Source: a virus
Taxonomy: Duplodnaviria > Caudoviricetes
Strand: one strand, 5' to 3'
Length of the DNA: 64,000 nt
IMG/VR virus record: IMGVR_UViG_2834631226_000004
Span: 12,363 to 76,362 of that record
The stretch's first letter is position 1, and every line of letters starts with the position of its first letter. Positions 1,230 to 60,813 of this stretch are shown here, one piece after another. The notes beneath the pieces were generated by a model. It did no database searches, was not told the DNA's origin, and saw nothing but the letters and a program-made list of their open reading frames with translations. The translations under genes were made by a program, and so were the position numbers.

Positions 1230-1436
1230 TCTTGTCTCCTCAGTGGCGGTGGTTGACCGCCAGTTGGTGGCTGGCGGCTGGTTGGGGATTGCTGGGGAAG
1301 TCGCTGTATAAATGCTAAAAAAAACCCGAATTTGCCGGTTGTTTCGGTGGTTATCCCCCATTGGCAATTGACCTTCGGCCCGTAGGGAGTCCTTATTGCC
1401 ATTGTGGTGCCAGCGAATCTTTCACTGGAGCACCAA

Positions 1437-1586
1437 ATGAAGACCTTCCTTAAGTTCAGGCACGGTAAAACCGAAGGTGAAGCGAACAACACTCTCGGAA
1501 TGTTGCTGCTAACGATCATTGCCGTAACCTACAGGCTTGCACCGTTCATCGCGCTGGGCGCTGGCGGATACTGGCATGTTCGCTAG
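1437..1586 (+). CDS. Small membrane protein
   Basis: GGAG RBS, hydrophobic C-terminal half, opposite strand to neighbours. Confidence 0.5.
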   Translation: MKTFLKFRHGKTEGEANNTLGMLLLTIIAVTYRLAPFIALGAGGYWHVR

Positions 1587-1590
1587 GGCG

Positions 1591-2826
1591 TCACGCCACT
1601 GCCCTCGCCGACTCATTATCATTGGCGGCATCCATCATCGCAACGCGAACGCGCGAAACTTCGCCATATTCCTTGTGGTAGCTGATCGACTGCATAGACC
1701 GGCCAGACAGGAAGCCCGAGCCAAAGTGCCACGCATCCTGCGGCGTCGGCGTCTGGTGAGATTCCGAAATCACCCCGCCGCCCTCAGAAGCGAACTTGCT
1801 CGAGTGGTGGATGTGAAAGCCATGGACGAAGCGGTGGCGAGTTGCGCCCCAGTCTTCGGCACGGCGGTGTGCCATGATGCTCGCCATGTCCTTGAGCTTG
1901 ACCGTGTGGCCATGCGTGGCGCCGATCATCACCTTGCCGAAACGGAACCAGAAGAACAGCGACGGGTCTACGTCGACAGTCACTCTCGGCTCATTGCGAT
2001 ACCAGGCGAGCAGGAAGTATGCGACTGCAACAGACGCGTGCTCATCGTGATTGCCTGGCAAGATGCGGACGGTGACGTGCCCATGCCGCTTAAGGCTGGC
2101 GTCGATCGATCGAACGACAAGCCGGCATGCGGTCATCAGCACCTTTTGATACCTGCCGTCGACCTGCAGAACGTTGCCCGAGCGTGCAGTCTTGTTCTCG
2201 TTGTTGTCAGAGTGGAGCAAGTCACCGCCACCCAAGACAATCGCATTGGCGGATGGCGGAGTGCGCGCAATCAGGTCTTCAATTGCTGAGCCAATGACAT
2301 GCTCCGCAATCTTTAAATCCCAATTCGTGTCTGTCTCGCGATGCCATGAGAAGAGTCCGATATGCCAGTCGGCCAATGGCGTCAGCGTCAGCAGATCGTC
2401 ATAGACGTGCGTCGGCGCGGCGATAGGTTCGGCGGGCTGAACATCACGGAATGCCTCTTTGAGGACGGCGGCGATATCGACTGGTGAGTGTTCCACCGCC
2501 GTCTTCTGCCACTGCTGGATAACGCGTCCCTCAGCATCGACGAGCGCGGACACACCTTTGACGACGTGACCGGTCGGGACTTCGAAACGCTCGCCGCGCT
2601 CCTGCGTCTGCTGGATATATGTGCCGCTCGGCGTGTTGCTGATACGGCTTATGCGAAAGCCAGGAAGGACAGGCTCTGTGCCCAGAAGGCCAGCTTCGGC
2701 AGCGCGTTTGATGCTCTCGGCAAGAGCGGACTTGCCGATGCCAAGCGCGGCGGCAGCCTTCACGAGCGTGCCGTGCTCTCTGTAGGCGTCGGCTCTTCGA
2801 CGTAGTTCTTCTATGGGTAGAGGCAT
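1591..2826 (-). CDS. Calcineurin-like metallophosphoesterase with N-terminal HTH
   Basis: ADWHIG, GGGDLLH, PGNHD, THGH, GFHIHH motifs. Confidence 0.85.
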   Translation of the reverse strand: MPLPIEELRRRADAYREHGTLVKAAAALGIGKSALAESIKRAAEAGLLGTEPVLPGFRISRISNTPSGTYIQQTQERGERFEVPTGHVVKGVSALVDAEGRVIQQWQKTAVEHSPVDIAAVLKEAFRDVQPAEPIAAPTHVYDDLLTLTPLADWHIGLFSWHRETDTNWDLKIAEHVIGSAIEDLIARTPPSANAIVLGGGDLLHSDNNENKTARSGNVLQVDGRYQKVLMTACRLVVRSIDASLKRHGHVTVRILPGNHDEHASVAVAYFLLAWYRNEPRVTVDVDPSLFFWFRFGKVMIGATHGHTVKLKDMASIMAHRRAEDWGATRHRFVHGFHIHHSSKFASEGGGVISESHQTPTPQDAWHFGSGFLSGRSMQSISYHKEYGEVSRVRVAMMDAANDNESARAVA

Positions 2827-2907
2827 GCAGTCTCCTCGATGTGGTGGTGAAGGCCGCTTGGTGGGCGGCCTGATGTCACTCTGACAAAGCCGGTGGGTTG
2901 GTGGGGG

Positions 2908-3246
2908 TCACTTCATCTCGTCGTAATCGAGGAAGTATGATTTGCCGCAGACGTCACAGCGGTAGCGCTCGCCATCCATGCCGCCGCCGACTTCCTTCAT
3001 GTTTGGACAGTCGCGAGTTGATGGATCGGCTATGCCGCAAGGCCGTGGACCTGAAGCCTGCTGCTCTGGTGCGCCCTTAAGACCACGCATCAGGAAAGCT
3101 GTTCGCTGTGCGGTCTCGTAAAAGAATTGCCATTCCTCTTGCGTCAGAGGGCGATTGAACCCAATCACGCACTCGGAGCTTTCGGGCTTGTTCCATCCGC
3201 GTTCGGCCAAAAGGTCTAGCTTTTTAAGAGACACGACGTTGCTCAT
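2908..3246 (-). CDS. Hypothetical protein (C-terminal Cys cluster)
   Basis: ORF in operon; CPNM..CDVC. Confidence 0.5.
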   Translation of the reverse strand: MSNVVSLKKLDLLAERGWNKPESSECVIGFNRPLTQEEWQFFYETAQRTAFLMRGLKGAPEQQASGPRPCGIADPSTRDCPNMKEVGGGMDGERYRCDVCGKSYFLDYDEMK

Positions 3247-3283
3247 CTGCTTCTTCCGCTGTGCTGTGGTTACTTGGTGGGGG

Positions 3284-3526
3284 TCAGGCGACGAACTGCG
3301 CGTCGAGCTTTCGGAGCGTCTGCTTTGCCGCGACCGCTTGCAGATCACCGCCGACGCGGAAATCCATGGCGCTGGTAATCCGCTGGCGAACCTGTTCGCG
3401 CGACGGCGTGCCGTTCATGAAGCCGATGCTGTGGTTGAAAACTTCGTTCTCAATCGTTTCGACCTCGACGCAGAAATCGATTGCCGGGTCTGGATGGTGG
3501 TCAAATTTTCCGAGTTTCTCTGTCAT
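3284..3526 (-). CDS. Hypothetical protein
   Basis: ORF in operon order. Confidence 0.5.
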   Translation of the reverse strand: MTEKLGKFDHHPDPAIDFCVEVETIENEVFNHSIGFMNGTPSREQVRQRITSAMDFRVGGDLQAVAAKQTLRKLDAQFVA

Positions 3527-3550
3527 GTTCCCTATCCTTTGTCTGAAGCC

Positions 3551-59386: not shown

Positions 59387-59405
59387 CGGTTTACCGTTTT
59401 AACGG

Positions 59406-59433
59406 TTGACGACGCACCGGTATCGTTCTATAT
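59406..59433 (+). promoter_or_regulatory. Rightward early promoter with ACCGGT in spacer
   Basis: TTGAC-N17-CTATAT; ACCGGT 59416-59421. Confidence 0.8.
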
Positions 59434-59485
59434 CTCCTCTTGTACCCCAGCAAACCAAGCTGGCCACCACAAGAGGAGATACACC

Positions 59486-59854
59486 ATGTACAGACCGCGT
59501 CCCGAAGAGTTCGACGATATCGCCGTTGCCGCACACGGCGCTGTTGCCCAGTCCGACGAGCCAATGAAGCGCCCGGACCACAAGGCCAAGAAGCACGGCA
59601 AGCCCAAGACGAAATATGAATACGTGCGCCGCTTCCCCAAGAAGCCGCGCAACGGCGAGGAAGTCGGCGGTGGCCACTTCGTATTCCGCCGCGGTGACAG
59701 CACTGGACGCATTCGTCCCTGCATGTGGCCCTTTGAGCATCCCTCCTACGATTCAGCGCTGGTTGAAGCCGCACGCCTCCACAAAGAGTATGGCGGCACC
59801 TTTGAAGTGTTCGTTCGCGTCGGCCGCGTCGAGGCACTTGAGGCCGGCGAATGA
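59486..59854 (+). CDS. Basic hypothetical early protein
   Basis: GAGGAGA RBS and leader hairpin. Confidence 0.75.
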   Translation: MYRPRPEEFDDIAVAAHGAVAQSDEPMKRPDHKAKKHGKPKTKYEYVRRFPKKPRNGEEVGGGHFVFRRGDSTGRIRPCMWPFEHPSYDSALVEAARLHKEYGGTFEVFVRVGRVEALEAGE

Positions 59855-59982
59855 GCGCGGCCGTCGAGAAGCCGACCGTCCAGCAAATTATCACCGAAGA
59901 ACACGTCGACCTGTTGAAGGACATAGCTAGCTTTCTGGCTCTGTCTCTCTTCATCGCCGCAGTGCTGATCTGGGCTTACTGA
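59851..59982 (+). CDS. Small membrane peptide (43 aa)
   Basis: ATGA overlap; hydrophobic C-terminus. Confidence 0.55.
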   Translation: MSAAVEKPTVQQIITEEHVDLLKDIASFLALSLFIAAVLIWAY

Positions 59983-60020
59983 CACCACCAACCACCACAC
60001 CACTTGAGGAGATCAAATAA

Positions 60021-60764
60021 ATGAAATTCGACATTCTGAACAGATTCAGCGGAGAAGTGCAGTTTTCTACCGAAATCGACTGCAAGGCAGACGATTTGCC
60101 GTCAGTGAAACTCGGCATGGCCGTCAAGGTGGCCGTGAAGGAGAGCGCCAACCTCTACGGCGCCAACCTCTACGGCGCCAACCTCTACGGCGCCGACCTC
60201 CGCAGCGCCAACCTCTACGGCGCCAACCTCTACGGCGCCAACCTCTACGGCGCCGACCTCCGCAGCGCCGACCTCCGCAGCGCCAACCTCTACGGCGCCG
60301 ACCTCTACGGCGCCGACCTCCGCAGCGCCAACCTCTACGGCGCCAACCTCCGCAGCGCCAACCTCTACGGCGCCAACCTCTACGGCGCCGACCTCTACGG
60401 CGCCGACCTCTACGGCGCCGACCTGAAAGATGCGAAGTACGCTGATTTGGTCATTGCGCAAACTCGCATCCTGCCAGCAGGGAGCCTGATCGGGTGGAAG
60501 AAATGCCGCGATGGCATTATCGTCAAACTTCGCATTCCTGAAGAAGCCCGTCGCAGCCACGCGTTCGGACGTAAGTGCCGCGCGGAGTTTGCTGACGTGA
60601 TCGAGATAATCGGCGCCGAGCAAGCGGTCAGCAGTCATGACGGCGTAACCGTCTACCGCACCGGCGAACGCGTCACGCCTGACAGCTTCGACGAAAACTG
60701 GCAGGAAGAGTGCGCACCGGGCATTCACTTCTTCATCACCAAAGAAGAAGCAGAAAACTACTGA
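60021..60764 (+). CDS. Pentapeptide-repeat protein
   Basis: 19 A[N/D]L[YG/RS]-type repeats; C-terminal ECAPGIHFF. Confidence 0.92.
   Translation: MKFDILNRFSGEVQFSTEIDCKADDLPSVKLGMAVKVAVKESANLYGANLYGANLYGADLRSANLYGANLYGANLYGADLRSADLRSANLYGADLYGADLRSANLYGANLRSANLYGANLYGADLYGADLYGADLKDAKYADLVIAQTRILPAGSLIGWKKCRDGIIVKLRIPEEARRSHAFGRKCRAEFADVIEIIGAEQAVSSHDGVTVYRTGERVTPDSFDENWQEECAPGIHFFITKEEAENY
60147..60416 (+). repeat. 18 x 15-bp tandem repeat
   Basis: GCC[A/G]ACCTC[TACGGC/CGCAGC]. Confidence 0.95.
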
Positions 60765-60813
60765 GCGCTTACCGGCGCTCACTACCCTTTTCACCACATC
60801 CGAGGAGACAAAA

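Follow-up and report, generated by a model that had tools for sequence, protein, structure and literature searches.

The stretch of DNA analysed here (the window) is 64,000 nt long, covers positions 12363-76362 of the 76-kb IMG/VR provirus record IMGVR_UViG_2834631226_000004 and, judged from its sequence, belongs to a temperate phage of the siphovirus type. Its kin are Rhizobium phage 16-3, Sinorhizobium phages AP-16-3 and NV1.1.1 and Rhizobium phage RHph_TM3_3_14B. The late structural genes are found at roughly 7-30 kb. Early, replication and accessory functions are encoded by the minus strand at 0.8-4.3 kb and 31-57.6 kb and by the plus strand from 59.4 kb onward, and the phage also encodes a Mu Gam-like end protector. 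Many of the early and accessory genes are preceded by a repeated start-associated leader, here called the ACCA leader, in which a small hairpin with a near-constant loop is linked to a strong ribosome binding site (RBS). In this paper we describe the anatomy of the leader, the evidence that both its pairing and its loop are under selection, its distribution, its part in gene exchange and its likely mode of action. The element is real, widespread and apparently undescribed.

The leader is built in a constant order: a hairpin, the word CACCAC(A), 1-4 nt, the extended Shine-Dalgarno (SD) sequence GAGGAGA(C), an A/C-rich spacer of 3-10 nt and a start codon, either ATG or GTG (Table 1). The SD also occurs as GGGGAGA, GAGGGGA or CAGGAGG, and the spacing from hairpin to SD ranges from 1 to 51 nt. 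An earlier note, made from the letters of the window, had listed eleven hairpins placed 20-45 nt upstream of genes, each oriented with its gene and usually followed by CACCAC(A), GAGGAGA and a start. This description holds throughout: all eleven are present with the coordinates, loops and strands it gave, their 3' ends lie 20-44 nt from the start codon, and the strong copies are all in gene sense on both divergent arms. Their stems are perfect, GC-rich and 4-8 bp long and have no sequence in common, and their loops read CCACCAA in five cases and CUACCAA, CAACCAA, AAACCAA, CACCAA, CCACCA and UUACCG in one each. Four further members, all on the minus strand, extend the set (E10, the degenerate E9 and two with larger A/C loops, before the genes at 54400-54762 and 55717-56679), and about seven leaders of the window carry the CCACCAA and CACCAC words with no hairpin. 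The CCACCAA heptamer is found 19 times in gene sense versus 3 in antisense, with 12 copies within leaders; it also stands unpaired, often immediately 3' of the upstream stop as TAA-CCACCAA. C makes up 43% and G 13% of the unpaired portions of the leaders. In some leaders a second hairpin separates the ACCA hairpin from the SD, as at 42541-42557 (-) in the methylase leader E6, where it has a UUCG tetraloop, and at 50006-50021 (-) in the clamp leader E9 (CGCGGG-ACAA-CCCGCG), where it is kept in 16-3, NV1.1.1 and AP-16-3. The open reading frames (ORFs) that precede leaders very often terminate in GCC-GCC-TAA (Ala-Ala-stop) followed directly by CCACCA, for example at window 53217-53222.

Chance and base composition are ruled out as the source of these hairpins by shuffles, by a loop census and by a gene-anchored test. 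Hairpins with an NNACCAA loop and a stem of at least 4 bp occur eight times in the window, all eight in gene sense, versus 0.45 +/- 0.72 (maximum 3) in 200 dinucleotide shuffles of the window; a frequency at the random level, which the earlier note had named as part of the contrary outcome, is not what is found. In a census of all window hairpins CCACCAA is the top-ranked loop (the second most frequent is ACCUCUA, with three copies). No other 7-nt loop is as common across 1.24 Mb of related loci, where CCACCAA has 37 copies on 10 distinct closing stems and CGACCAA ranks next; CCACCAA there equals the best 4-nt loops in the number of distinct stems. The covariance model across related phages that the earlier note had proposed was run over 80 loci and returns 57 strong hairpin matches, comprising 35 distinct sequences with an ACCAA loop; it was trained on ACCAA loops, and the constancy of that word in its match set is thus partly built in. 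Among the 35 distinct stems, 92.9% of cells are paired and double changes occur at all six of six pairs. In the window the hairpin-only model gives eight matches at 20 bits or more, none of them in the late region.

Because the model partly builds in the constancy of its loop, we added a gene-anchored test that involves no selection for hairpins: orthologues of 16 window genes were chosen by their N-terminal protein sequence and the upstream DNA was inspected afterwards. A hairpin of at least 5 bp with an ACC-containing loop is present in 78 of the 157 distinct upstream regions, compared with 9.9% of shuffles. The fraction rises to 25/28 for the beta-clamp gene, on more than eight unrelated stems, with the loops CUCACCA, CCACCA, CACCA, CAACCAA and CCACCAA. 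Compensatory change at orthologous sites is illustrated by GCCGUGCGC/GCGCACGGC versus GCCGUGCGG/CCGCACGGC, whose loops differ at position 2 only; this is the one position at which orthologous loops vary, and since U and G are allowed there, the loop is not explained by A/C composition. The site of the sigma-factor gene (E8) lies inside the last codons (..GATNA*) of a Cas4-type exonuclease ORF, and across relatives its stems change (GGCG/CGCC, AGGCU/AGCCU, AGGCGU/ACGCCU) along with the protein tails (GATNA, GSTKA, GVTNA), with the loop word kept. Selection therefore acts on the pairing and on the loop word, and the claim of a structured element with covarying stems and a fixed loop is borne out, with double changes at every pair and ACC(A) constant.

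Table 1. Leaders of the window, their modules and target genes, with scores of the covariance model
Feature	Extent (strand)	Hairpin	Other modules	Target or own gene	Score (bits)
Leader E1	1235-1277 (-)	1257-1277, CCGCCAG-CCACCAA-CUGGCGG	C/A tract AACCACCGCCAC; SD GAGGAGA 1235-1241	801-1229, MazG-like pyrophosphatase	26.0
Leader E2	2831-2871 (-)	2851-2871, loop CCACCAA	CACCACCACA; SD 2831-2837; unpaired CCACCAA 2898-2904	1591-2826, SbcD-like DNA repair exonuclease	27.2
Leader E3	4228-4331 (-)	4265-4281, loop CAACCAA	promoter/operator TTGACAAATTTGTA 4318-4331; CCACCACA 4256-4263; SD GAGGGGA 4228-4234	3551-4222, trypsin-like protease	23.5
Leader E4	32102-32137 (-)	32117-32137, loop CUACCAA; stem overlaps upstream stop UAA	CACCACA 32110-32116; SD	31190-32095	24.6
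Leader E5	32602-32639 (-)	32622-32639, loop CCACCA (6 nt)	CACCACCAGGAGG	32137-32601	13.5
Hairpin-less leader	34197-34222 (-)		ACCAACACCACGCCACAAGAGGAGAC	33557-34192, T5orf172/HTH	
Leader E6	42523-42576 (-)	42558-42576, loop CCACCAA	CACCACA 42534-42540; SD 42523-42529	41209-42513, N6/N4 DNA methylase	25.5
Leader E7	43753-43823 (-)	43769-43786, loop CACCAA	promoter/operator 43810-43823; CACCAC; SD 43753-43759	43379-43747, DUF7448	
Leader E8	47595-47629 (-)	47615-47629, GGCG-CCACCAA-CGCC	CCACCACA 47603-47610; SD 47595-47601	47053-47589, ECF-like sigma factor	21.1
Leader E9	49995-50055 (-)	50035-50055, degenerate, loop ~GCCAC	CACCACCACACA; SD 49995-50001	48934-49989, beta sliding clamp	
Leader E10	50901-50955 (-)	50923-50947, loop CCUCACCAG	unpaired CCACCAA 50949-50955; CACCAC 50912-50917; SD 50901-50907	50062-50895	
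Hairpin-less leader	51519-51547 (-)		UAA-CCACCACUACCACCACACCAC-AAGGAGAC	50956-51513, DUF669	
Leader with C/A words within upstream ORF end	52511-52531 (-)		CACCACACACCAC-UGA-GGAGG	51700-52506, AAA_24/Sak4-like	
Leader E11	53166-53216 (-)	53186-53208, loop CCACCAA	UAA-CCACCAA 53210-53216; CACCACA 53175-53181; SD 53166-53172	52966-53163	26.9
Leader with larger loop	54768-54845 (-)	54784-54806, CUGCUU-UGUCAACCACC-AAGCGG, CCACCAA within loop	promoter/operator 54832-54845; CACCAC; GAGGAGAC	54400-54762	
Leader with larger loop	56685-56721 (-)	56699-56721, GCGGC-CACCAAACCAAAC-GCCGC	GAGGAGAC	55717-56679, IS110/transposase-like	
Hairpin-less leader	57647-57672 (-)		ACCACCAAACCACCGCAC-GAGGAGAC	57061-57642	
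CI-like repressor				58673-59386	
Leader E12	59430-59485 (+)	59447-59463, loop AAACCAA	-10-like CTATAT; CCACCACA 59464-59471; SD 59473-59479	59486-59854	20
Hairpin-less leader	59982-60012 (+)		UGA-CACCACCAACCACCACACCAC-UUGAGGAGA	60021-60764, pentapeptide repeat	
Leader E13	60763-60808 (+)	60763-60780, loop UUACCG	CACCACA 60792-60798; SD 60802-60808	60814-61026	

The element is a family trait of the 16-3-like rhizobiophages and, within them, of the early and accessory gene class. Phages 16-3, AP-16-3, NV1.1.1 and RHph_TM3_3_14B each yield several model matches of about 18-26 bits, all but one of them gene-oriented and nearly all followed by a CACCAC-GAGGAGA box, and the number of hairpins per genome is 8-13. 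A scan of IMG/VR with the pattern CACCACA-N1-4-GAGGAGAC-N3-9-ATG returns at least 118 stretches; among those listed, 88 are akin to the reference phages by tblastx. Bases 1-19,999 of 16-3, which are its late region, give no model match above 14 bits, and the 12.4 kb of satellite and junction DNA that adjoin the window in the same record hold no copies. For the hosts, we examined five rhizobial genomes (5.4-7.7 Mb) picked from a pattern scan of genome contigs that was swamped by chance singletons in high-GC genomes. CACCACA-N1-4-GAGGAGA occurs two to six times in each, in one cluster per genome (spans 7-58 kb), with one additional lone copy apiece on a separate contig in two of the five; the reversed-pattern control gives 0 in the same genomes. 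Of seven model matches at E < ~0.02 in the host genomes, five lie in or within ~16 kb of the clusters, and the remaining two, on other contigs, fall in normal coding sequence and lack the box. Because the host copies are almost confined to one cluster per genome, the leader is a signal of the phage lineage, missing from host chromosomes outside prophages, and not a translation signal of the host. In unrelated high-GC phage contigs GAGGAGAC has C/A-only flanks but no hairpin, and hence the design of C/A tract plus strong SD is more general and the ACCA-loop hairpin is special to the 16-3-like group. One such contig, the 125-kb IMGVR_UViG_3300047472_000191, has at 386-4923 (+) seven small genes, each behind a promoter-like box GTGCTAGGGTAGATAYATCA and most also behind (A)CACCACACC-GAGGAGA, a repeated leader system without hairpins. 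Against Rfam 15 the window at gathering score gives a tRNA and ar35 only, and bases 41000-61500 give no match at E <= 1. In the literature on 16-3, on rhizobiophage repeats and on the motif itself we found no description of the element, and the AP-16-3 paper does not mention hairpins, promoters or terminators.

The leaders are also seams for the gain, loss and exchange of gene cassettes, since identical stretches of ~25-50 nt are found in front of many genes. In 72 pairs from different phages, one and the same leader is followed by ORFs that are unrelated; one hairpin-plus-SD unit precedes four different genes in 16-3, AP-16-3, NV1.1.1 and TM3_3_14B, and one portable allele of ~50 nt has differing neighbours on both sides. 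Three indels end inside leaders: window 50002-50900, with a 7-bp GAGGAGA repeat at its flanks; window 60002-60791, which holds the pentapeptide gene, in comparison with another sequence (L120), where the CACCAC boxes overlap by 9 nt; and, in a relative, 430 bp inserted at the 54762 leader, where the overlap spans 17 nt. BLAST breakpoints fall between -25 and +5 of these starts 49 times versus 9 expected, an enrichment of about 5-fold in which the subjects are related and the count is not one of independent events. The exchange is short-homology recombination between direct repeats, and its documented junctions map to linear CACCAC/GAGGAGA repeats that overlap by 7-17 nt, outside the hairpin. 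The proposal that the hairpin is a single-stranded DNA recombination mark bounding gene cassettes is thereby divided: the bounding of cassettes is real, with identical leaders before unrelated ORFs and indels that end in leaders, and the role given to the hairpin is not supported, with junctions in linear repeats and no integron-type recombinase among the ~40 ORFs scanned. The stems are moreover short and perfect, and an integron attC site is rejected on these grounds and for want of an IntI-like gene among the same ORFs. The shared leaders, the portable allele, the three indels and the enriched breakpoints would also be expected if the leaders were seams and nothing more, with no role in expression, persisting as selfish or hitch-hiking cassette boundaries; we regard this as very improbable, since unrelated stems that keep the loop word call for selection on loop and pairing and not on length of homology, the junctions spare the hairpin, and one hairpin is kept inside a coding region.

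In evolutionary behaviour the closest analogue is the PeSL cassette of T4-type phages, which joins a sigma-70 early promoter to a working terminator hairpin and by recombination between its copies inserts, deletes and replaces genes (Arbiol et al., 2010, PMC2839356; PMC4122927). Both are short regulatory cassettes with a stem-loop that recombine between copies in accessory-rich regions. Unlike PeSL, however, most ACCA leaders have no promoter, their hairpin has no U-tract and a conserved loop, and the RBS lies within the repeat; by the features of PeSL, recombination is present, a promoter is found at 4 of about 20 leaders and the terminator anatomy is absent.

In anatomy the closest published analogue is the start-associated sequence (SAS/ESAS) of Cluster K mycobacteriophages, an asymmetric repeat that embeds the SD a few bases before starts (Pope et al., 2011, PMC3203893). 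It comprises a 13-bp repeat, GGGATAGGAGCCC, 3-7 bp before starts, with 17-bp conserved inverted repeats upstream on about half of the copies; it precedes genes of different families in conserved form, is confined to non-structural genes and to one orientation, is absent from the host genome and has an unknown function (PMC3203893). The two systems share a lineage-specific, start-associated repeat with an SD at non-structural genes. They differ in that the ESAS arms are conserved without covariation, for which reason its authors favour a DNA-binding site (PMC3203893), whereas the stems of ACCA leaders are unrelated and covarying around a fixed loop; the repeat itself, CACCACA-N1-4-GAGGAGAC with the SD flanked by a C/A word, is not the SAS sequence, and the host phylum differs. 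We therefore reject membership of SAS/ESAS, given a different repeat sequence and stems that are not conserved.

A signal at the level of DNA has also to be weighed for the ACCA leaders themselves, whether a stoperator-like duplex site, a single-stranded mark for priming, replication or recombination, or a Chi-like complement, GTTGGTGG. The stoperators of Cluster A mycobacteriophages are asymmetric duplex sites of 13-14 bp, bound by the repressor and set in one orientation. The words of the ACCA leaders are orientation-biased and intergenic like the stoperators of mycobacteriophage L5, the complement GTTGGTGG is one base off the Escherichia coli Chi sequence GCTGGTGG, which counts on the same side, and the G-U test described below did not favour RNA. 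The location of the ACCA words in hairpin loops and their tie to an SD speak against stoperators, and a constant centre on variable stems is unlike a protein site on double-stranded DNA. The coupling of CACCACA to the SD within 1-4 nt and of the hairpin to the start, in one case inside a coding region, has no rationale at the DNA level; the orientation tracks transcription on both arms and not a genome end, and the phage carries a Mu Gam-like end protector. A DNA-level signal thus seems to us very unlikely. Fixed-loop hairpins (loops CAGCAC and CGCACGACC) may also stand before early or replication genes in other phages, of other hosts and lineages and without a linked CACCACA-GAGGAGAC box; the ACCA leader would then belong to a broader class.

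The position of the leaders in transcripts points to RNA. The annotated PL -10 element of phage 16-3 ends 8 nt before a member hairpin, which accordingly would form the 5' end of the PL mRNA. In the window a promoter/operator TTGACAAATTTGTA lies ~25-35 nt upstream of three hairpins and a CTATAT -10 element before a fourth; promoters are thus found at only 4 of about 20 leaders, and the remaining copies are intercistronic, with an upstream stop TAA in 48 of 73 cases, often as TAA-CCACCA. Because the element sits in 5' untranslated regions (UTRs) and intercistronic gaps, action at the RNA level is the most economical assumption. The promoter/operator is itself a repeat, in which a -35-like TTGACA runs into a perfect palindrome, ACAAATTTGT; it is found at E3, at E7 and in the leader of the gene at 54400-54762, with a variant at 55504-55517 (-), and also before many leaders in relatives; the repeats have the look of early or moron promoters under operator control, and we take them to resemble the ACAA-Nn-TTGT operators to which the C repressor of 16-3 binds. 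The ORF that comes first behind the PL-type leader has an N-terminus (window 59486-59545 (+), MYRPRPEEFDDIAVAA..) resembling that of an unannotated 28-codon ORF right after the 16-3 PL leader (15467-15553 (-), MRYHLSADDFDDVPVAA..); the rest of the two proteins differs, and the shared N-terminus may be a conserved leader peptide. Two simpler transcriptional roles are rejected. CACCAC and no U-tract follows the hairpins, none of which is called a terminator in the sense orientation (an ordinary terminator with a T8 run lies just upstream of E1), and the spacing is too variable for a promoter with -35/-10-like geometry read by the ECF-like sigma factor of the phage.

A role in termination of another kind would be a Rho-loading (rut-like) site that stops transcription when the RBS of the gene is unoccupied and so silences stray transcription in the lysogen. 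In tR1 of phage lambda, C-rich and G-poor words surround a hairpin in the order rutA-boxB-rutB. The C-rich, G-poor composition of the unpaired leader, the abundance of YC dinucleotides in its words and its location between cistrons and in 5' UTRs are all in keeping with such a site, but Rho needs neither the exact ACCAA word nor its placement in a loop, the tracts measure no more than about 10-30 nt and a strong SD stands 1-4 nt downstream, so that we judge a rut-like site highly improbable.

Hairpins read by a protein classically combine an invariant loop word with variable stems, and the leaders could accordingly be the operator of a dedicated trans-acting switch, regulatory and not constitutive, such as a loading site for an N/boxB-like processive antiterminator, a RegA-like site for translational repression by which early genes would be shut off, or the site of a hairpin-specific endoribonuclease that would cleave the polycistronic early RNA between cistrons. 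Each leader has two words, of which the loop holds one and the other adjoins the SD, the protease leaders of 16-3 and AP-16-3 hold tandem hairpins, and the element is restricted to the early and accessory class and to one phage lineage. With lambda nut in particular it shares a small hairpin with a sequence-specific loop and a variable stem, near the 5' end of PL/PR-type transcripts and after the first cistron. However, lambda boxB has a GNRA-like pentaloop, whereas ACCA loops are of 5-9 nt, made of C/A with the core ACC(A), and each is tied to an SD; there are more than 12 sites per genome, compared with 2 nut sites in lambda, no N-like protein or family match was found, and boxA is not evident in the leaders by eye, a judgement made without a scan for it. 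The nut/boxB-like function that had been suggested for the element is thus not upheld, and a lambda-type nut site is rejected on loop type, hairpin number and these absences. Nor is there a conserved small basic or RNA-binding protein among the ORFs scanned, the stems are too short for RNase III, and the box contains no U or NUH triplet, which excludes a hammerhead-type cleavage site. Taken over all its forms, a dedicated switch is possible but rather unlikely.

The reading that we favour, to which we give about even credence, is that the element is an RNA-level leader cassette that sets the translation of early genes and the stability of their mRNA, its ACCA word being read by a factor. The cassette, ~40-60 nt long and specific to 16-3-like rhizobiophages, would consist of four modules: a GC-rich hairpin with a free stem and the loop C-N-ACCAA (core ACC[A]); an unstructured C/A tract CACCAC(A), often with an extra unpaired CCACCAA after the upstream stop; the extended SD GAGGAGA(C); and an A/C-rich spacer with the start codon. 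5'-terminal stem-loops stabilise mRNA, and on this basis the hairpin, as the mRNA 5' end at early promoters and as the filler of intercistronic gaps in operons, may shield the end of the message and insulate each cistron. The tract, poor in G and U, would hold the strong SD single-stranded and may serve as a ribosome standby or enhancer site, as CA repeats have been proven experimentally to do (Sterk et al., 2018, PMC5934652). ompA-type 5' stabiliser hairpins and CA-repeat tracts (PMC5934652) likewise place a hairpin near the mRNA 5' end and a C/A tract before the RBS, but unlike the ACCA leaders they have no conserved loop word and do not form a genome-wide family. ACC(A) is constant and U or G is tolerated at position 2, which therefore implies a sequence-specific reader of single-stranded CCACCA; the repeated word, in the loop and beside the SD, would be read by one sequence-specific single-strand RNA-binding factor of host or phage, and this factor would set the translation or stability of the whole early and accessory class.

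Several observations weigh against the leader cassette so conceived. A purely constitutive cassette does not alone explain the invariance of ACC(A), and searches with Pfam and PHROGs reveal no RNA-binding domain or candidate reader among the ~40 ORFs scanned. The PL-type leader is not followed by a conserved first gene; G-U versus A-C mismatches in the stems number 4 and 7, where an excess of G-U would favour RNA; the predicted unpaired probability of the SD in single leaders is mixed, from 0.00 to 0.79; and the phages are akin, with the result that copy counts exceed the number of independent events.

Candidate partners and mimics at the RNA level were also considered and rejected. Pairing with 16S rRNA is at chance level, UUGGUGG occurring only in the helix-11 stem of a host 16S and CACCACA being unmatched, and an epsilon-like enhancer that pairs mRNA with rRNA fails because the word has no accessible 16S complement. 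The 3' strand of host 16S helix 11 reads CCUACCAAGG, the same word as the CUACCAA loop variant, and a 7-mer in 1.5 kb is within chance. A trans-acting RNA from the window is not apparent: neither the ar35 copy nor the tRNA-Met has an anti-motif, and UUGGUGG and GUGGUG otherwise occur in the window only as the reverse of leaders or within late ORFs. The tRNA-Met (CAT), phage-borne and with an encoded CCA end, lies between the late and early regions at 30888-30964 (-), and the match to the ar35 small RNA family (RF02346, 47 bits, barely above the gathering score) at 34372-34504 (-), within the prophage and with a terminator at its end. A mimic of RNase P substrates or of the tRNA acceptor (stem plus NCCA) is not supported by a fixed geometry, the stem-CCA offset varying from 0 to 4 nt, and likenesses to an anticodon loop, a CCA-CCA tail, Nova-type YCAY and NusA-KH sites are mere resemblances. 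A switch between alternative hairpins is rejected as well: the ensembles of the PL-type and E1 leaders are dominated by the 5' hairpin, and only 16-3 has an alternative of nearly equal energy.

The ACCA leader is a conspicuous signal before a third of the early genes of 16-3, a classic model temperate phage, and with dozens of natural stem swaps, one fixed loop and a second linear word beside the RBS it makes a clean experimental case. It bears on the role of repeated start-associated sequences, open since their finding in mycobacteriophages in 2011, and shows at base-pair resolution a regulatory leader that doubles as an exchange seam, which helps explain mosaicism at gene starts. The covariance model marks prophages of the 16-3-like group, and the leader could serve as a portable expression part in Rhizobium, Sinorhizobium and Agrobacterium. 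Going beyond the leader cassette, we tentatively suggest that the ACCA hairpin and CACCACA box may together be the address label of a phage-wide post-transcriptional regulon, in which one single-strand RNA-binding factor, encoded by the phage or hijacked from its host, would read both copies of the word and turn ~20 early genes on or off as a class, and into which the same label would plug new genes by short-homology recombination. If this were true, and if other phages bear like labels, it would amount to a general, undescribed layer of phage gene control.

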